A program made the translations under genes and the position numbers. Positions 8,237 to 55,060 of a stretch of DNA of 64,000 bases are shown piece by piece; the first letter of the stretch is position 1; each line of letters opens with the position of its first letter. Below the pieces are notes generated by a model. The model saw nothing but the letters and a program-made list of their open reading frames with translations. It was not told where the DNA came from and searched no databases. Origin of the DNA: Microcystaceae cyanobacterium (lineage in GTDB: Bacteria; Cyanobacteriota; Cyanobacteriia; Cyanobacteriales; Microcystaceae); NCBI GenBank assembly GCA_041746575.1, contig JBGTGT010000113.1, positions 1 to 64,000 of the forward strand, in the 5' to 3' direction.

Positions 8237-9205
8237 CTAGTTAGACAGTTCTAACATTCGTTGAATCGGACGTAAAGCTCTCTGTTGAATAGCAGATGGA
8301 ATGGTAATTTCTGGGGTTTTATTTTTCATGGCTAAATATAACTTTTCGAGGGTATTGAGTCGCATATAAGGACACTCATTACAGTTACAGTTATTAATCG
8401 AGGGAGCAGGAATAAATCGCTTATTGGGGGCTTCTTTTTGCATTTGATGAATAATTCCTGGTTCAGTCGCTACAATAAAGATATTTTGCTCACTTTGTAA
8501 ACTGTATTTCAATAAAGCGGTGGTTGACCCAATATAATCAGCATGATTTAAAACCGTTTCTTCGCACTCAGGATGGGCAATAATTTCGGCTTCAGGATGG
8601 GTTATTTTTAGCTGAACAATTTGCTTTTCTGAGAAGGTTTCGTGGACAATACAACTTCCTTGCCATAAAACCAACTCTCTACCCGTTTTTTCCATCACAT
8701 AACGTCCTAAATTGCGATCTGGCGCGAAAATAATCGGTTGATCTTCAGGAATTTGTTTAACAATTTTGACCGCATTAGAACTGGTGCAAATAATATCACT
8801 CATTGCTTTGATTTCTGCTGTGCAATTAATATAAGAAATCACCAAATGAGCGGGATAGTTTGCTTTGAATCGAGCAAATTCTGCGGGCGGACAACTATCG
8901 GCTAAAGAACATCCTGCGTCTAAATCAGGCAATAAAACTTGTTTATGGGGATTTAAAATTTTCGCCGTTTCCGCCATAAAGTGAACCCCCGCAAACACAA
9001 TCACATCCGCTTGGGTTTGAGCGGCTTGTTGGGAAAGTCCAAGGGAATCGCCAATGTAATCTGCAATGTCTTGAATGTCAGGGTCTTGGTAGTAATGCGC
9101 TAAGATAACGGCGTTTAGTTCTTGTTTTAATTCATTAATTGCCGAAAATAGGTCAAGAGGCAAATCGAGGGAGGAGGGAAAAGTCGGTCGAACAGTCGTA
9201 AACAC
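8237..9205 (-). CDS. nadA: Quinolinate synthase A
   Basis: [31 protein letters not shown] and CPYM motifs. Confidence 0.96.
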
Positions 9206-15705: not shown

Positions 15706-17727
15706 CTAATCATGAGATAAAAGGGAAATTGTATGAGTATCGGTAAGGGGAAGCGGAAGAGGACAGAAGGCGCGTTCTTGATATACCACTAAATCAAACC
15801 AAAAAGTTGTTCCTATACCTACTTCACTAATTAGATAAATTTGACTGTGGTGTTTTTGAATAATATTTTTAACAATTGATAAACCTAAACCCGTTCCTTC
15901 TAAGGTATGTACCCGATTTTCCACGCGATAGAAGCGGTCAAAAATAGCGTCTTGATCTTCTTGATCAATGCCGATTCCTGTATCTGAAATTTCAACTCTA
16001 ACTTGAGGGTAAGAACGCAGATCAGCAGTTTCAAAATGCGTTGGAATTTGATAGGCACGAATCGCAACTTTTCCGCCTGATTCTGTAAACTTTAAGGCAT
16101 TTCCTAAGAGGTTAGTCATCACTTGTAAAAGTAAATCATAATGACCTAAAACCATTGGTAAATCGGATTCAATATCTTGAATTAATTCTAAATTTTTGTC
16201 CTTAGCATTGAGTTGATAGGTGCGCAGGGTTTGTTCGATGAGTTGCCCTAAATCTACTTGATCTAAGTGGTATATTTTAGAAGACTCTAAGCGGGATAAA
16301 TCGAGAACATCGTTGACTAAACGAGTCAGGCGATCTGTTTCGTGATTAGCCGTCGCTAGAAATTCTCTGCGTTCTATTTCTGTTAAATCTTCCCCAAATT
16401 CAGATAGCGTTTCAATGAAAGATTTAATATTAAATAAAGGAGTTCTTAATTCATGGGAAACATTACTAATAAATTGACTCTTTGCCTCGTTTAATTCAAC
16501 TTCGCGCGTAATATCTTGCACTGTCATCGCAATCCCTTTTGGATTTTCTTTATATTGATCCAATACCTGCGTTAACATAATACGAACTGTTCGAGAATTC
16601 GGCGGTTTTAGGTGAATCCGAAATTCTCCGGTAGAAGTCTCTCCTTCTGTTTCAGCATTATCTAGCATTTGATGCGTCTTTTCTTCATACTCTAATTTTC
16701 TAAGCGATAATTTTTGCAGAGAATTTTTGATTTGATGAATAATTTCGGAAGGCAAATAATCCAAGATATTTTGACCAATCACCTCTTGATTTTCCCAATT
16801 TAGAATTCGTCTGGCTGTCGGGTTGACTAAGAGAAGATTTAAGTTAGTATCCAACAAAAGTGCGCCATCAGCAATAGTCGAAACCAATGTTTCTAATTTT
16901 GCTTTTTCGGCGGTCATTTCTTCAATATTTTGCTCTTCATAGTTAGCCAATTTTTCAGCCATTTCATTAAAACTAACGATCAGTTCTCCTAGTTCTCCTC
17001 CAAAGGGCAAACCAATTCTTTGCTTGAAGTTTCCTGTCGTAATGTTTTTAACCCCGACTAAGAGTTCTTTAATCGGTTTTGTGATGGTTAGCGCATTAAA
17101 AACACCTCCCAAAATGACCATCGCCCAAATTGAGACAAAGACAGCAATCGTTACGTCGCGAGTGAGATTAGAAGAAGCAACAACCGTAGGATTAGGGTTA
17201 ATCCCAATAGCTAAAACGCCGAAGTCTTTTCCTCCCTGTTTTAGGGGAACAAAAACATCGGTTACTTCCCCATCTGGACTTTGATGTTGACGCACGACGG
17301 GTAGATCAGCATGATTAGAATTATGCTCGGGAATTTCAATTCGTCTTTCTAACGTTAAAGAGTTATGAACTTCAGCTTGAGAATAGGGAATACCAAAAAA
17401 GATTTTACCTTCAGGATCAGCATAAATCAGGTAGCGAACGCTAGAAGTACTCTCAAAAAAACGGCTAGAAAAACGGGCAACTTCAGTTAAATTATTTTCG
17501 ACAATTAGAGGAGTAACATTTGAGGCAAGGAGTAAACCCAAATCTCGGCCGAAACGAGTATCACTGATACGGGCATCCTCTTGTATCGTATTAACTGCCC
17601 AAAAAGTAAGGCCACTCATCAATAAAGATACAGCAAGGGTTGCGGCGGCCATCAGTTTCGTTTGTAAGGTAAATTCAGACCACCAGCGAGCAAGGGCTTC
17701 TCCCATGGTTTGAAATAGCGTCAACAA
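15706..17727 (-). CDS. nblS: Sensor histidine kinase NblS/Hik33 (HAMP-PAS-HisKA-HATPase)
   Basis: WWSEFTLQTKLMAAATL, TRFGRDLGLLLA, SHELRTPLFNIKSFIETL and RVHTLEGTGLGL motifs. Confidence 0.93.
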   Translation of the reverse strand: MLTLFQTMGEALARWWSEFTLQTKLMAAATLAVSLLMSGLTFWAVNTIQEDARISDTRFGRDLGLLLASNVTPLIVENNLTEVARFSSRFFESTSSVRYLIYADPEGKIFFGIPYSQAEVHNSLTLERRIEIPEHNSNHADLPVVRQHQSPDGEVTDVFVPLKQGGKDFGVLAIGINPNPTVVASSNLTRDVTIAVFVSIWAMVILGGVFNALTITKPIKELLVGVKNITTGNFKQRIGLPFGGELGELIVSFNEMAEKLANYEEQNIEEMTAEKAKLETLVSTIADGALLLDTNLNLLLVNPTARRILNWENQEVIGQNILDYLPSEIIHQIKNSLQKLSLRKLEYEEKTHQMLDNAETEGETSTGEFRIHLKPPNSRTVRIMLTQVLDQYKENPKGIAMTVQDITREVELNEAKSQFISNVSHELRTPLFNIKSFIETLSEFGEDLTEIERREFLATANHETDRLTRLVNDVLDLSRLESSKIYHLDQVDLGQLIEQTLRTYQLNAKDKNLELIQDIESDLPMVLGHYDLLLQVMTNLLGNALKFTESGGKVAIRAYQIPTHFETADLRSYPQVRVEISDTGIGIDQEDQDAIFDRFYRVENRVHTLEGTGLGLSIVKNIIQKHHSQIYLISEVGIGTTFWFDLVVYQERAFCPLPLPLTDTHTISLLSHD

Positions 17728-49416: not shown

Positions 49417-50292
49417 TTACTGTTCATCGATACGATAGGCGCGAATCATCGCCGGTGTCCCTTGTTCGTCTCCTCCCATGCTTTGTACCTGTTTAAATAG
49501 GGAATTTGCTAATTTTAAACCGGGTAAGTCTAAATCTCCCATACTTTCCTGAACTAAGCGTAAATCCTTAAGAATGTGTTTAATCATAAAGCCGGGGGCA
49601 AAATCAGACGTCGCAACTTTTTCCCCCAAATTCGCCAAAGCCCAAGAGCCGGCTGCCCCACTACCACAGACGTCTATCATGAGATTAGGATCAAGATTGA
49701 ACTGTTGCGCCAGTTGCATTGCTTCACATAAGGCCACCATGTGCAGAGAACAGAGGACTTGATTACAGAGCTTGACCGCTTGTCCGCTACCTTGTGAGCC
49801 ACAATAAACAATTTTCTTGCCCATTGCCCCTAATAAGGGTATAGCTTCTTCATAATCAGCTTTTTCGCCCCCCACCATGATGGTCAATGTGCCGTTTTGT
49901 GCGCCAATGTCTCCACCAGAGATAGGAGCATCTAGAAAGCGCAATTTTTTATCTTTCAAAGAATCGGCAATTTCGAGAACGGCTGAAGTTCCAATGGTAC
50001 TAAAATCAATGATTAAAGCACTAGGGTGCGCATGTTCTGCAATTCCGCCTTGACCCAAAATCACCCTTTTAACATCGTCAACATCACTGACGCAAGTACA
50101 AATAAGGGCAGTATCCTCCTTAATAGCTTCAGCAATAGAAGGGGCGAGATTGACGCCATTTTCGGCGGCTTGTTGTACCAGTGGACGGTTTGAGGTACGA
50201 TTCCAAGCTGAAACGGGGTAACCTGCTTTAACGAGGTTTTGCGCCATAGGACTCCCCATTACGCCTAATCCGATAAAAGCAACATTTTTCAT
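49417..50292 (-). CDS. Beta-hydroxyacid dehydrogenase (3-hydroxyisobutyrate / tartronate semialdehyde reductase family)
   Basis: FIGLGVMGSPMA, LDAPISGG, K.CNQ and F.IKHILKDL motifs. Confidence 0.9.
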   Translation of the reverse strand: MKNVAFIGLGVMGSPMAQNLVKAGYPVSAWNRTSNRPLVQQAAENGVNLAPSIAEAIKEDTALICTCVSDVDDVKRVILGQGGIAEHAHPSALIIDFSTIGTSAVLEIADSLKDKKLRFLDAPISGGDIGAQNGTLTIMVGGEKADYEEAIPLLGAMGKKIVYCGSQGSGQAVKLCNQVLCSLHMVALCEAMQLAQQFNLDPNLMIDVCGSGAAGSWALANLGEKVATSDFAPGFMIKHILKDLRLVQESMGDLDLPGLKLANSLFKQVQSMGGDEQGTPAMIRAYRIDEQ

Positions 50293-50361
50293 GCTGATTT
50301 CTCCCTTTAAATTCATCATTTATCAAGATAACAGGGAAAGATGCTATGAAGTCCAGACTTA

Positions 50362-52011
50362 TTAAATAACTAGCAATAAATCAATAAATTGATGCCATGT
50401 TAAAGATTCATATCCTGTTTTATGCTTTAAAAACTTAATTTCTTGAGGGAATAAAGGAGGTTCTCCTACGCTCTGCAAAACCCGATTCATTTCTGCTGAA
50501 TCGATTAACCCGTCTTCATTATCATCAATAGGAATAAAATAAGTCACCAATTCATTATAGTTAGTGGTTAAGCGTTGGTGTCGTAAGATTAATTCTCCAA
50601 ATTCTTCAAAGTCAATTTTCCCACTATTATCAAGATCAATACTGTTAAATAAGTCGTTAATTTCAGTATCTAGCAGCGTGTCATGGGCAAGTCTTAAGTA
50701 GGTTTTTAATTCTGATAGTGAAATTTTTTCATTGCGATCACTATCAATAGCATTAAAAATATATCGGAGGTCTCCTTTAAGTTCAGCACTCGCTTTTTGA
50801 AAGAGCAAAAAAGTTGTTTTTTCTACTATCGCTTCTTGAAGTTGATAGCGAAAACTGACAATAATCTCTTTGGCAATTTGATAACGTTTATAATGTTCTT
50901 CAGGGCAAGTAATTGTATAAAGTGCAACAGGAACTAGAGAAGGAATCGAATGTTTTACAATGAAAAAAGCACCCATCGTTGTTATCGTAAATGCTAAAGC
51001 TAATGGCGGTAACCCAAGGGGAGCAAAAACCAGAAGTAATTCCCAATGTACCCACGCACAAACGAAAGAGGCTAACAGTGCAATGCCAATACTGCGAGGT
51101 AGCGGCGCATAAAAAATTCCTCCCAAGGCAATCGCTGTCAAAACTGAGTTCAATTCCCATAATCCTAGATAGACAGATTGTAAGTCAATACCCAGAGCGA
51201 TCGCTACTATAGCACTTATCAAAGCCCCCATTAATCCCATTCCTGCACTAATAGGAGAACAGATAAAAACCCCCGTTAGAATTAATAAACTCGAAATCAG
51301 GTTTAGACTAAACAAGATACTGCCAAAGCTTCTGGGAAAAGAGAATAATAATTGTAAGCCATCTAGCGAAGTAATCGGCGGGCTTATTGGGGGACTTCCT
51401 AACTCAAATAATGGCTGAGGAATATATAATATTGCGCCATAAAAAAGAAGCGTTATTAAATGAAATGGAATCCCTAAAATCGAAATTTTAAAATAGGTTG
51501 TAATCCAAACTCTCAAAGTATTCGCTAAAATAGTGGTTAATATCGCTAAAATAATAACGGCAAATGCCCATAGAGGACTACCGTTTCCATTGCCCCACAA
51601 GCTAAATGTTCCGACGGCTAATCCCCCTAAAGTTCCATTAAAGCCCCAAACGCCATTCCGAATAGCGTCTATATTGACTTTTAGGAAAATAGCGGTTATT
51701 GTTGATGCGATCGCTCCTAATAATCCGCAGAGTCCAACCCAAGGAGAGTGAATAAAAGTTGCCACTAAAAATATTAATCCAGTCAAGGGATTATTGCAAA
51801 AAATGACCTGACCTATGCCGCGTAATGTAGCATTAATTCCGTCGAAAAAAGAGGATGGAACTAACTGCTCATTTAGCCATTGCATTGTACCTGTAATCGG
51901 CAGAAAGCGACGAGTTGAACTTTGAGCAGGAGCATCCAAAATTTTAGCCAGTAGCGCTTGCAAGGATAAAGATTGATGATGGGGGTTTTCTGTCGAATTT
52001 GATTCACTCAT
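50362..52011 (-). CDS. Urea transporter (UT/Utp) family membrane protein fused to a C-terminal EF-hand domain
   Basis: LRGIGQVIFCNNPLTG and GVWGFNG in repeat 1, about 10 TM segments; EF loops DSDRNEKISLSE, DLDNSGKIDFEE, DDNEDGLIDSAE. Confidence 0.85.
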   Translation of the reverse strand: MSESNSTENPHHQSLSLQALLAKILDAPAQSSTRRFLPITGTMQWLNEQLVPSSFFDGINATLRGIGQVIFCNNPLTGLIFLVATFIHSPWVGLCGLLGAIASTITAIFLKVNIDAIRNGVWGFNGTLGGLAVGTFSLWGNGNGSPLWAFAVIILAILTTILANTLRVWITTYFKISILGIPFHLITLLFYGAILYIPQPLFELGSPPISPPITSLDGLQLLFSFPRSFGSILFSLNLISSLLILTGVFICSPISAGMGLMGALISAIVAIALGIDLQSVYLGLWELNSVLTAIALGGIFYAPLPRSIGIALLASFVCAWVHWELLLVFAPLGLPPLALAFTITTMGAFFIVKHSIPSLVPVALYTITCPEEHYKRYQIAKEIIVSFRYQLQEAIVEKTTFLLFQKASAELKGDLRYIFNAIDSDRNEKISLSELKTYLRLAHDTLLDTEINDLFNSIDLDNSGKIDFEEFGELILRHQRLTTNYNELVTYFIPIDDNEDGLIDSAEMNRVLQSVGEPPLFPQEIKFLKHKTGYESLTWHQFIDLLLVI

Positions 52012-52085
52012 TTTAAAATTAGAAATTGAGAATTAATTTAGTTTAGTGTATTATGAAAAGCTTGACTGAGTGCAGGTAATATGTT

Positions 52086-53804
52086 ATGAAACAAGACCAA
52101 AGATTATATGGCAAGACAATGACTACTTTACCGTTATACCTCCCTAGACCTAGAGAAGCGGAAGGCACTTATTTAAGAATTGTGTCTATTAATGATGTTT
52201 ACGAAATTAAAAACTATCCTTATATTGAAACTGTAATTCAAGGACTGAAGCAAACAGCAGAAGATGCAGTGGTCATTGCTTCTATGAGTGGGGATTTTCT
52301 CTCTCCTTGCCTGCTAACATCTTTGGATGGTGGGAAATCCATGTTGGATGTTCTTAATGTTGTCAATATCGATTATATTTGCTTTGGCAATCACGAATTT
52401 GATATCAATTTAGATGTCCTGCACGAACGGTTTAAGACCTATCGAGGAAAATGTCTAAACGGCAATATTCCTAACTTATCTATCGTTGATATAACAGGTA
52501 ATCCTCTGCCCAAATACGATCTTGTAAAAATAAAAAAACATCGAGTCGCCTTCGCCGGATTTTGTACCAACAATACTGATATTTTTCGACCGGGAACCAA
52601 TTTAACAATTCTGCCAATTTTTGAGGCTTTAAAACAAGTTTGGACTGAGTGTAAAAATGAAGCAACTATGTTAATTCCACTGACCCATCAAACCATTGCT
52701 GAAGATCGGGCATTAGCAATTCAAATTGCAGAAGATGACGAACTTCGAGGCCATATTCCGATTATTCTGGGTGGCCACGAACATGAAGTTTATATTGAAG
52801 AAATCGCCCAAAACTTTATTGTCAAAGCGGGCTCTGATGCTAAGAATGTTGTAGTGGCAGATGTGTGGTGGACAGCAGAGGATAAAGTACAAAGGGCGGT
52901 TCATTTATTACCAGCAAGTCACTTTGATGCCGATCCCCATGCTCAAATATTCGTCGAAAAAACGCAAAACTTTTTGGGTTCGTTAATAGATGTAGAGATT
53001 TTTCAAGTCAAAGAAACTATGTCTTCTAAGAGAACACGCTTCCAGCCAGAAAAAGTTGCCTCAACCCTCTGTTCTTATATTAAAAAAAGTTTACAAAATA
53101 TAAATATCGTTATATTGCAAGGAGGATGTGTCCGAGGCAATCGTGACTATCAAAAAGATTCATCATTTACCTATGGCGATTTGTTGGAAGAATTACCTTT
53201 TGATACGCAAATTGCCGTGATTAAAGTCCCCGGAAAAGTCTTGCAGGATGCCATCTCTTTAACACGAAGTACACCTGAGCAAGAAGCTCCCAACTTTTTA
53301 CACGTAGATCTTGATACCATTATTGAAGACTATCCCCGTTTAAAAATTGTCAGTATTAACCACGCACCTTTTGACCCTGAAAAGATATACAATGTTGCGA
53401 TTTATCAATTTTTGCTGACAGGTTTAAACGAGATTAAGCCTCTGCTAGATTATGTCAATACCCAAGGCAGTATTCCCTCTTTAGAGCAGTGTATTCCGGG
53501 GAAAAACTTAATTCTAGAAGCTTGTATGAAAGATGCTTGGCGAACCCTCGTTAATTTTGAGGAATGGGATAGCAATGGAGATGGAAATATTTCTAAATCC
53601 GAACTCGAACAAGCTGTTAAAAAAGCCTTTGCCTTTCTAGATCAAAACCAAGATGGACACATTTCACCCACAGAGCTGCAAACTGCAATTATCGAAAAAA
53701 CAGGGAATCGAGATCATGGCTTAATTAATATGATGTTTGAGATGCTTGATGCCGATAACGATGGTATGGTGTCAATGGAAGAATTAGCATCTTTAGCGAT
53801 ATAA
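52086..53804 (+). CDS. 5'-nucleotidase (metallophosphoesterase + 5'-NT C domain) fused to EF-hands
   Basis: NDVYE, GDF, GNHEFD, LTH, GGHEH, GGCVRG and ELPF; EF loops DSNGDGNISKSE, DQNQDGHISPTE, DADNDGMVSMEE. No signal peptide; start may be 52119. Confidence 0.88.
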   Translation: MKQDQRLYGKTMTTLPLYLPRPREAEGTYLRIVSINDVYEIKNYPYIETVIQGLKQTAEDAVVIASMSGDFLSPCLLTSLDGGKSMLDVLNVVNIDYICFGNHEFDINLDVLHERFKTYRGKCLNGNIPNLSIVDITGNPLPKYDLVKIKKHRVAFAGFCTNNTDIFRPGTNLTILPIFEALKQVWTECKNEATMLIPLTHQTIAEDRALAIQIAEDDELRGHIPIILGGHEHEVYIEEIAQNFIVKAGSDAKNVVVADVWWTAEDKVQRAVHLLPASHFDADPHAQIFVEKTQNFLGSLIDVEIFQVKETMSSKRTRFQPEKVASTLCSYIKKSLQNINIVILQGGCVRGNRDYQKDSSFTYGDLLEELPFDTQIAVIKVPGKVLQDAISLTRSTPEQEAPNFLHVDLDTIIEDYPRLKIVSINHAPFDPEKIYNVAIYQFLLTGLNEIKPLLDYVNTQGSIPSLEQCIPGKNLILEACMKDAWRTLVNFEEWDSNGDGNISKSELEQAVKKAFAFLDQNQDGHISPTELQTAIIEKTGNRDHGLINMMFEMLDADNDGMVSMEELASLAI

Positions 53805-53865
53805 ACCGTGTGCCTGTTCAAAACACTCACTTGTGAGAACAAGGAAGCAACGAGATTTTTTAATG

Positions 53866-54855
53866 TTAGGAAACGAATTGTTTAAAGAGTTGTAAGAACT
53901 TTTGAGTATCAACATCAAAACAGGCATCAACATTAGGGGGGTTTGCCAATTCATCACGCCGATTGCGTAAATCTGCTAAAGATAGCCCTTTGGTAAAACG
54001 GCCTTCCGTTTCCACTACCATATAAAGGGGTTCTGTTTTTACTAAGCTTGGATCGAGCACAACTGCTATCGCTAAAGGATCATGTAAATAACAGCCATAA
54101 AATCCCTCATTATCCCGATAAAATGCCATATAAATTTCTGTACAATCAGCAATAAACTGAGTGATTTTCGATGGAGAATTCCGTAAATTTTCCTCCACAA
54201 CTTTACGATGTAAAGGTGCTTTTATCGCAACATCTAAACCCACCAACGTTAATGGAATACCCGATTCCATTACCAATTGTGCGGCATGGGGATCAACAAA
54301 AAAATTAAATTCGGCAGCAGCTGAAATATTGCCCGGAACATTTACGGCTCCTCCCATAATAATAATACGCCCAATTTTTTTCAGGACTTCGGCATCTTTT
54401 TGCAGCGCAGTGGCAATATTTGTGAGGGGACCTAAAGCAACAATTGTTAAGTTTTTACCGTATTCCTGTGCCGCATTGAGAAGGATATCAATAGCACTTT
54501 CAGGAGAAAGTTTTAAGGCTAATTCAGGATAACGAGGAGAGCCATTTTTTTCTTGAAAACGGTGTAATTCTCCCAAACCATCCGCACCGTGAATTCCTGC
54601 CGCATCAAAGGGAGGATTAACTAATGGTTTTTTACAGCCTTTTGCCACCGTTGGCATTTTATTAGGAGCGACAACACTAACCACACGTAAGACATTTTGA
54701 GCCGCTTGCTCAACATTAATATTACCCGCCAAAACGGTGATCGCTTTCAGATCAATTTGTGGTGAATTTAAGGCCATAATCAAGGCTAAAGCATCATCTA
54801 CTCCGCCATCAGTGTCAATAATTATAGGGATCGAGGGATTGGGTAAACTCGCCAT
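53866..54855 (-). CDS. Inosine/uridine-preferring nucleoside hydrolase
   Basis: DTDGGVDDA, IHGADGLG, LGPLTN, AEFN..VDP.AA and LHDP motifs. Confidence 0.93.
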   Translation of the reverse strand: MASLPNPSIPIIIDTDGGVDDALALIMALNSPQIDLKAITVLAGNINVEQAAQNVLRVVSVVAPNKMPTVAKGCKKPLVNPPFDAAGIHGADGLGELHRFQEKNGSPRYPELALKLSPESAIDILLNAAQEYGKNLTIVALGPLTNIATALQKDAEVLKKIGRIIIMGGAVNVPGNISAAAEFNFFVDPHAAQLVMESGIPLTLVGLDVAIKAPLHRKVVEENLRNSPSKITQFIADCTEIYMAFYRDNEGFYGCYLHDPLAIAVVLDPSLVKTEPLYMVVETEGRFTKGLSLADLRNRRDELANPPNVDACFDVDTQKFLQLFKQFVS

Positions 54856-55060
54856 AGTACTCAAAATTTCCTAAAATCTGCTGTATCTGCTTTAATAGAA
54901 ATATTAATAATTTGAAGTTTACCATTCAATGGATAGCTAACTCGCCAGCGTGCAATTTTAGGCAGAGTGCTCACCAATTTGTCGTTGGACTCAATCAACT
55001 GCCATCGATTCGAGAATAGTCCTTAAATCTTGACATTCACACCCGTATTCCCTTAGAGCC

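Follow-up and report, generated by a model that had tools for sequence, protein, structure and literature searches.

Channels of the urea transporter (UT) family are the closest described relatives of the membrane protein considered here. In bovine and mouse UT-B, the Sm constriction of the pore carries two threonines, T172 and T334, whose contexts, PVFTLPFN and PPCTWPF, can be read from the primers printed in PMC12171576. According to the parts of that study devoted to these residues, replacing an Sm threonine with valine in UT-A or UT-B lowers the flux of urea, water and NH3, fully for the second threonine and in an isoform-dependent manner for the first, and the channels pass NH3 and water besides urea. 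A second study (PMC12998343, Biol Direct 2026) reports EF-hand domains C-terminal to UT in 8-13 proteins of bacteria ('Bacillati') and stramenopiles (its Table S3) and suggests that these proteins are regulated by Ca2+; the UT plus EF-hand architecture is thus already known. The words nucleotidase, arginase and cyanobacteria are absent from its main text, and its passages on these proteins treat neither gene neighbourhoods nor pore classes.

Here, we describe a genomic neighbourhood in which such a channel is encoded beside two enzymes of nucleotide breakdown. The DNA is a 64,000-nt stretch from a Microcystaceae cyanobacterium (contig JBGTGT010000113.1 of assembly GCA_041746575.1, positions 1-64,000, forward strand), referred to as the window. 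Three open reading frames (ORFs) fill positions 50362-54864: UT-EF, a UT-family channel with a C-terminal calmodulin-like domain (50362..52011, minus strand, 549 aa); NT-EF, a leaderless 5'-nucleotidase-family metallophosphoesterase with C-terminal EF-hands (52086..53804, plus strand, 572 aa); and IUNH, an IU-type nucleoside hydrolase (53866..54864, minus strand, 332 aa from a TTG start, or ending at 54855 if the ATG three codons in is used instead). We show that the pore class of UT-EF proteins matches the neighbouring enzyme exactly. On balance, and with slightly better than even confidence, we propose that the three genes form a conserved, laterally mobile trio predicted to encode a Ca2+-switched cytoplasmic pathway that converts nucleotides into nucleosides and these into base plus ribose, and that the channel of this trio would pass a small uncharged product other than urea. 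Full-text literature searches, which left subscription journals largely outside, returned no published description of the trio, of the arginase/UT-EF pair presented below or of the pore dichotomy; as far as searched, the channel/nucleotidase/hydrolase module, its EF-hand arginase sister module and the correspondence between pore residues and partner are new. The original prediction, made from the letters of the window, had known of no description either. For the module this stands; UT plus EF-hand proteins do appear in PMC12998343, and both fusion proteins are annotated in public databases under the names 'urea transporter', 'EF-hand domain-containing protein' and 'bifunctional metallophosphatase/5'-nucleotidase'.

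UT-EF belongs to the UT family by a full-length profile match and by comparison with solved structures. Residues 59-349 (50965..51837, minus strand) match positions 1-288 of the 292 in the Pfam UT profile (PF03253, E 1.3e-65), matches to the solved UT-A, UT-B and dvUT chains, which cover the whole channel, have E values of 1e-28 to 1e-33 while the match to a two-domain UT-A chain reaches 3e-64, and the AlphaFold2 (AF2) model has a predicted local distance difference test score (pLDDT) of 84.7 and a predicted template modelling score (pTM) of 0.82. Against the Yut equivalog (TIGR03441) it scores 159.6 bits versus a cut-off of 274.6. Neither Sm threonine is present: in the alignment to UT-A and UT-B, Gly180 (51472-51474, minus strand) stands at the first site and Ala338 (50998-51000, minus strand) at the second, and UT-EF reads LGIPFH and PLALAF where UT-B, as printed in those primers, has PVFTLPFN and PPCTWPF.

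Behind the last membrane helix, the AF2 model shows a long helix (residues 370-395; 50827..50904, minus strand) leading to the EF-hand domain, in which P370, E371, H373, R376 and F387 are invariant in 70 UT-EF sequences and which is a candidate gating element. The domain itself (residues 409-548; 50368..50787, minus strand) is matched by Pfam EF-hand families and by calmodulin chains at E ~1e-15 to 1e-17, and its loops at residues 423-434, 459-470 and 496-507 are canonical in 69, 70 and 68 of the 70 sequences. UT-EF and NT-EF each have three 12-residue loops with ligands at positions 1, 3, 5 and 12 in a paired arrangement, in keeping with the original prediction of three C-terminal EF-hand loops in either fusion (Pfam and loop scan). 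The UT-EF model adds a fourth, degenerate helix-loop-helix, giving eight helices over residues 409-548, so that this tail is a calmodulin-like domain of four EF-hands rather than a set of three loops.

In the DNA surrounding UT-EF genes that lack an NT-EF neighbour, two partners recur. The first is a nucleotidase-type set, comprising one or two IUNH genes and a leaderless 5'-nucleotidase of 493 aa beside UT-EF. The second is a protein of about 500 aa with N-terminal EF-hands and an arginase-family domain (Pfam Arginase, E 1e-44 to 1e-50), encoded directly upstream of UT-EF on the same strand; its nearest NCBIfam model is rocF, the true arginase (209.6 and 190.4 bits versus a cut-off of 227.6). 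Examples of this pair are L122:6851-10128 and L126:7424-10550, further ones lie in L127, L128, L135, L137, L138, L141, L142, L144 and L146, and it occurs in 26 metagenome loci within L158-L207. The product of arginase is urea, and an EF-hand arginase beside a UT-EF with both threonines looks like a calcium-tagged pair of the kind 'make urea, pass urea'. The EF-hand arginase fusion was not found in the window's genome.

Pore residues and partners were compared in a genome set, from which 6 duplicate loci had been removed, and in a set of 79 metagenome-contig loci; over both sets, 37 loci are arginase-linked and 31 lie beside a 5'-nucleotidase and/or a nucleoside hydrolase. All 19 genome loci with a nucleotidase or IUNH partner have Gly at position 180 and Ala or Ser at 338, and a partial genome locus beside an IUNH gene (L145) has Ser at 338. 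The 11 genome loci with an EF-hand arginase have Thr at 180 throughout and, at 338, Thr in 9, Ala in 1 and an unreadable residue in 1. The metagenome contigs repeat the pattern: next to an EF-hand arginase (26 loci), Thr occupies 180 in 25/25 and 338 in 24/24 readable sequences, and next to a nucleotidase or IUNH (11 loci), 180 is Gly in 10/10 and 338 is Ala, Ser or Gly in 10/10 readable sequences. The other EF-hand-bearing metagenome loci have no partner in the sequence examined, many of these contigs being short. There is no crossover between pore class and partner in either set, and two genomes that carry both modules, G218 and G692, have the appropriate channel type in each. The view of the window's protein as simply a urea channel with an added tail is therefore not borne out, because both filter threonines are absent and it is the threonine-bearing UT-EF proteins that pair with EF-hand arginases.

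The two Sm positions stand out among all positions of the protein. When 549 columns were scanned over 32 arginase-linked and 26 nucleotidase-linked full-length proteins, column 180 (Thr 32/32 versus Gly 26/26) tied with columns 85 and 549 for the best separation, at zero overlap, and column 338 (Thr 31/32 versus Ala 13, Ser 12, Gly 1) tied with column 2 for the next best. Both are within the five best-separating columns, of which 549 and 2 lie in gap-rich termini; positions 235, 181, 234 and 292 are in the top twenty. In an IQ-TREE phylogeny that comprised 33 UT-EF proteins typed by context and, as outgroup, four UT proteins without EF-hands, and whose topology FastTree reproduced, a Thr/Thr arginase-linked clade has a Gly-type clade as its sister (ultrafast bootstrap 96, each clade 100) and a second Thr-type arginase-linked clade falls outside this pair; since re-rooting may shift support labels toward the root and deeper nodes are weak, only the values of 96 and 100 inside the subtree are relied on. 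By this branching, pore and partner changed in concert on two or more occasions, beyond what one ancestral split would produce.

Several loci from these comparisons have features of their own. The contig of L122 carries, besides its intact arginase/Thr-Thr pair, a second, Gly-type UT-EF (L122:17253-18899; G218:C59:30273-31898), which has three in-frame TAG stops and lies beside an IUNH gene. In large filamentous genomes (L122:1840-14289, L123:4255-8850, L124:10727-14814), UT-EF lies among channel and signalling genes, including a CASTOR/POLLUX-like RCK channel, a bestrophin, MscS-like channels, EamA transporters and an ETR1_N-SpoIIE phosphatase with DUF6272. A Gly-type UT-EF with neither nucleotidase nor hydrolase nearby is followed by a putative small secreted protein in L023:2980-14624 (G009) and L024:7738-11972 (G017), in the vicinity of an EamA-like transporter and, judged by eye, a putative guanine deaminase-like amidohydrolase; L023 also has a putative BMP-type ABC system. 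In L121, a cluster of non-EF nucleotidase, hydrolase and UT-EF includes a second, N-terminally shorter nucleotidase copy and is flanked by a HAMP plus cyclase fragment upstream (8401-8889) and a cNMP-binding protein downstream (16057-16650).

The linkage of the three genes of the window was examined with one genome per species, in 22 cyanobacterial NT-EF loci at 58-84% identity; the records include Moorena, Okeania, Symploca, Caldora, Dapis, Hormoscilla, Leptolyngbya and Nodosilinea. IUNH adjoins NT-EF in 16/22 loci and UT-EF does so in 15/22 (two as fragments and one split over several frames), so that the test of neighbourhood conservation put forward with the original prediction turned out strongly in its favour. 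Seven loci have the order UT>NT>IUNH on one strand, three NT>IUNH>UT and one NT>UT>IUNH; the divergent plus convergent layout of the window recurs in L028, and L044 is also divergent. The six loci without IUNH comprise four that are cut by a contig end or very short, L041, and one gene fragment. Matches to NT-EF or UT-EF extend over at least two frames in L026:10001-11690, L037:10001-11687 and L044:588-2225, where frameshifts or assembly errors are possible. Clustering of the ORFs of 24 loci and the window gave no fourth conserved gene, the other recurrent clusters being shadow ORFs and an ABC ATPase (4 loci), and the suggested link to xanthine dehydrogenase, ureide or urease genes appeared in none of the loci.

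Could the three genes be functionally unrelated, and neighbours by chance or through shared regulation only? Some loci do lack one member, and the genes of the window, being divergent and convergent, are not one operon. Against this, the genes remain neighbours in distantly related cyanobacterial families and in no fewer than four different orders, and pore class follows the partner. The canonical state of the UT-EF loops in 68-70 of 70 sequences, together with the recurrence of the linkage in other genomes, places the arrangement far beyond chance, and we regard unrelatedness as scarcely credible.

The trio is rare and patchily distributed. NT-EF was found in 2/401 and UT-EF in 14/401 genomes sampled across the phylum, UT-EF in 23/401 sampled across the order, and neither in two genomes of the same genus (92% and 77% complete). 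A genome of another family, G061, has the same internal layout at 72-83% identity between different flanking genes, and in the window the GC content of the cassette bins (50001-54000) is 0.385 and 0.377 versus 0.42-0.48 in the flanking 2-kb bins. The conserved linkage, the layout of G061 with its different flanks, the rarity and the GC dip point to a cassette that moves between genomes as a unit. On the minus strand, 42 bp downstream of UT-EF, lies a tartronate-semialdehyde/3-hydroxyisobutyrate dehydrogenase-like gene (49417-50319), which is not beside the module in the other loci compared. Both same-genus genomes have a homologue of this gene, accompanied by none of the other genes that neighbour it in the window, and they give no placement for gain or loss of the cassette. 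A mobile cassette of patchy distribution and deviating GC content would also suit a stress or defence suicide module, in which Ca2+ influx on membrane damage or infection triggers nucleotide depletion and the products leak, the more so as the enzyme is cytosolic and would destroy nucleoside monophosphates (NMPs). No defence-island genes are conserved nearby in the loci compared (no PADLOC scan was made), the relatives are ordinary genes in many algae and the sister arginase modules look metabolic, all of which makes a suicide role highly improbable.

Within the window, the divergent spacer between UT-EF and NT-EF measures 74 bp (52012-52085) and lengthens to 107 bp when NT-EF is taken to begin at Met12, the start that most homologues have; the divergent pair separated by 74-107 bp and the hydrolase converging on the nucleotidase, as originally described, are both recovered from the ORFs, the convergent spacer being 61 bp. 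The divergent spacer holds the best promoter-like site of the scanned region (52026-52054, plus strand, TTGAGA-17-TATTAT, 10/12 matches), which is a weak pointer only; promoter and terminator counts in the scanned region showed no excess over shuffled sequence. Prediction of a complex between UT-EF residues 366-549 and NT-EF residues 465-572 (one job) scored 0.01 and has no bearing either way. The window's genome further encodes an EF-hand protein of 232 aa (G000:C110:17009-17473).

NT-EF has the two-domain architecture and fold of the 5'-nucleotidase/UshA family according to Pfam, the AF2 model and Foldseek alike. Pfam finds a Metallophos domain at residues 30-234 (52173..52787, plus strand), a substrate-binding 5_nucleotid_C domain at residues 319-449 (53040..53432, plus strand, E 4.9e-13), which is the sole match to that family in the genome, and three EF-hand stretches. 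The model has a pLDDT of 90.9 and a pTM of 0.81, and Foldseek retrieves 3ive first (E 3e-29), followed by YunD, a Thermus enzyme, CD73, UshA and NadN; the best NCBIfam equivalog score is for UshA, at 59.8 bits versus a cut-off of 600. An export signal such as those of UshA, CD73 and NadN is absent: with a polar N-terminus and a catalytic domain whose first strand already begins at residue 29 of the model, NT-EF cannot accommodate a signal peptide, in agreement with the original prediction, which had noted that there is none. Leaderless relatives exist in YunD and c4898, and the sequence fits a cytoplasmic location and competent EF-hand loops.

Conservation of the catalytic motifs was assessed in the 113 members of at least 480 aa among the best 120 matches. 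Asp37 and Tyr39 are present in 109/109 ungapped sequences, and N102, H103, D106, H201, H231 and H233 in 113/113. NT-EF itself has GD, GNHEFD, His201 and GHEH, and across the family GD, GNHExD, His201 and GHxH are invariant or nearly so. Of the five dimetal-site motifs four are invariant, and motif I reads D-V-Y (N-D-V-Y; Tyr39, 52200-52202) where the superfamily has DxH. Relatives from Bacteroidota (L047-L104) at ~25% identity, which are without EF-hands and show no conserved neighbour, have NDVY or NDFY in 58/58 sequences, and their printed cluster representative begins with a lipoprotein-like leader; the tyrosine is thus the mark of a broader subfamily, as yet uncharacterised, with the EF-hand proteins as its presumed cytosolic branch. 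NT-EF has its three EF-hand loops at residues 495-506, 519-530 and 555-566 (53568..53783, plus strand); of 63 family members, 30, 55 and 52, respectively, show the canonical form of these loops. In the model and by loop spacing, loops 2 and 3 are placed as a canonical EF-hand pair and loop 1 is extra; the idea that the last EF-hand is an orphan in need of a partner was rejected on these grounds.

Relatives of NT-EF with the same architecture at 34-43% identity are numerous, some from sources labelled as haptophytes or dinoflagellates and most from metagenome or transcriptome records. A Chrysochromulina (haptophyte) protein of 934 aa, P0073, joins adenylate kinase (PF00406) to the NT-EF architecture; another relative, P0107, has an added PH domain. 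In a FastTree phylogeny rooted with the Bacteroidota relatives, 24 cyanobacterial-type NT-EF proteins form one clade (0.986) nested among these relatives. Such nesting would be expected if the gene passed between algae and cyanobacteria when its fusion was already in place, a transfer to which no direction is assigned.

IUNH is a member of the IU-type nucleoside hydrolases (PF01156, IU_nuc_hydro, E 9.1e-94) with the DxDxxxDD calcium site and the group I catalytic histidine. Aligned to RihA/YbeK (1yoe, E 1.6e-58), it retains the aspartate cluster of the catalytic Ca2+ site as DTDGGVDDA and the histidine of LHDP, and has an insertion of ~10 residues after residue 100. It is most like the pyrimidine-preferring RihA, and scores 244.4, 245.7 and 210.8 bits against the RihA, RihC and UriH equivalogs, versus cut-offs of 433, 382 and 450. 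As none of UT-EF, NT-EF and IUNH reaches an NCBIfam equivalog cut-off, the three proteins are family members outside the characterised subfamilies. The window's genome has a second IU-type hydrolase (G000:C69:10954-11835).

The substrate that enters the pathway is indicated in two ways: the adenylate kinase fusion of the haptophyte points to AMP, and pyrimidine NMPs are favoured by the RihA-like character of the hydrolase. A pyridine-nucleotide route is a further candidate, in which NT-EF would cleave NAD or nicotinamide mononucleotide (NMN) to nicotinamide riboside, the hydrolase would free nicotinamide and a widened amide channel would pass it. NadN is among the structural matches (3zu0, TM 0.64-0.65) and its NCBIfam model gives a weak match, some IU-type hydrolases split nicotinamide riboside, and nicotinamide is, like urea, an amide. 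That match is far under the cut-off (38 versus 436), no NAD salvage gene is linked and the algal fusion indicates AMP, so that we consider this route improbable.

These observations can be assembled into a model of how the predicted Ca2+-switched pathway would operate. A rise in cytosolic Ca2+ would load the EF-hands of UT-EF and NT-EF. The loaded tail of the channel would open or close the pore; gating through the invariant linker helix is proposed on the basis of conservation and the AF2 model. NT-EF, switched at the same time, would dephosphorylate NMPs, and IUNH would split the resulting nucleosides into base and ribose. For the arginase modules, urea, which the enzyme makes, would be the cargo of the channel, with a Ca2+ sensor on both proteins, and the same logic can be carried to the nucleotidase module: what the Gly/Ala pore lets through would be a small, uncharged molecule produced by the hydrolase, the free base being the most plausible. 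IUNH accompanies Gly-type channels more constantly than either nucleotidase does, being present in 18/19 linked genome loci and 9/11 metagenome loci, which makes a cargo from the hydrolase step more likely than phosphate. A free base, planar and ureide-like, is on this analogy the best candidate.

Several observations weigh against this pathway and must be set beside the evidence for it. EF-hands on the nucleotidase, present in the window as predicted, are optional in the module, since many clusters use instead the 493-aa enzyme without them (22% identity to NT-EF, with the canonical DxH motif). The replacement of the motif-I histidine by Tyr39 could alter the metal or the chemistry of NT-EF. 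The trio is incomplete in L041, where NT-EF has neither IUNH nor UT-EF despite at least 5 kb on each side, and in L026, L027 and L037, where NT-EF and IUNH have no UT-EF within 10 kb. Some Gly-type and Ala-type channels have no such neighbour: of 5 genome loci with neither partner in the DNA examined, four are Gly-type and one has Ala at 180 (L140), all with Ala or Ser at 338, and further cases without a partner in the metagenome set are L154, a complete Gly-type protein, the Ala-type L160 and L161, and a few partial reads. Related sequences are, moreover, non-independent observations. A nucleobase is much larger than urea. Finally, in 17 UT proteins without EF-hands, position 180 is S in 11, T in 5 and G in 1, and position 338 is T in 8, A in 6, S in 2 and G in 1; loss of the threonines thus does not prove loss of urea conduction.

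This last variation also speaks for a role in nitrogen recycling, as raised in the original prediction, in which the channel still carries urea, NH3 or water, the bases feed catabolism to urea or ammonia, and the pore changes tune rate or gating. UT-EF keeps the UT fold and most pore motifs, and UT channels pass NH3 and water as well (PMC12171576, in its account of UT fluxes). The window's genome encodes a urease, on another contig, with an arginase-family ORF ~3.5 kb upstream of urease alpha (G000:C121:10908-16508). Yet in none of the loci is the module linked to urease or to a gene for degrading the purine or pyrimidine ring, and the exact match of pore class to partner, with the coupled switching on the tree, would be unexpected if both classes carried urea. 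We therefore hold nitrogen recycling to be unlikely, if a serious contender.

A bolder form of the predicted pathway is that the UT fold has been repurposed, and that Gly-type UT-EF is a Ca2+-gated channel for a planar ureide-like base (e.g. uracil, hypoxanthine or adenine) by virtue of the lost filter threonines and the changed neighbouring pore residues. We offer this tentatively and consider it unlikely. If it is true, the trio and the arginase/urea-channel pairs would together represent a general 'make it and vent it on a calcium pulse' enzyme-channel design in cyanobacteria, with algal counterparts, and passage of nucleobases through the altered channel would be a new transport route for them. 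Few targets of cyanobacterial Ca2+ signalling are known; here two enzyme types and a channel with their own sensors are encoded together and can be assayed. The match between pore residues and partner is a natural experiment on selectivity in a family that includes the kidney urea transporters, and it predicts cargo-swapping mutations. As the nucleotidase family is common to haptophytes and dinoflagellates, these findings may be relevant to the control of nucleotide turnover by Ca2+ in marine algae as well.

Set against the described systems, each member of the trio departs from its relatives in a distinct manner. With the UT urea channels (UT-A, UT-B and Desulfovibrio dvUT; PDB 8blo, 4ezc and 3k3f), UT-EF shares the ten-helix fold and the internal repeat motifs NNP..G and ..PF, and it differs in having Gly and Ala for both Sm threonines, a fused linker helix with a four-EF-hand domain, and nucleotide enzymes rather than urease as partners. 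IUNH resembles the group I IU-type hydrolases (E. coli RihA/YbeK and RihC, Crithidia IU-NH) in its Pfam match, aspartate cluster and LHDP histidine, and is set apart from RihA and RihC by scores under both equivalog cut-offs and by the insertion after residue 100. NT-EF has the two-domain fold of UshA, CD73 and NadN and of the leaderless YunD and E. coli c4898 (PDB 1ush, 4h2i, 3zu0, 9a7h and 3ive; Foldseek E 3e-29 to 1e-25), with the motifs GD, GNHE.D, His and GHxH in common. It keeps segments aligned with ILNGGGIRS and LPFG of CD73, which presumably hold the phosphate-binding Arg and the base-stacking Phe, and differs from the group in reading NDVY rather than DxH, in lacking a signal peptide, in its C-terminal EF-hands and in an identity of 14-19%. 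The nearest counterpart of the whole is the arginase sister module, which has the same channel family, the same Ca2+-binding tail and an EF-hand hydrolase encoded beside the channel, and which differs in its arginase-like ureohydrolase with N-terminal EF-hands, its Thr/Thr channel and an arrangement that is always tandem on one strand.

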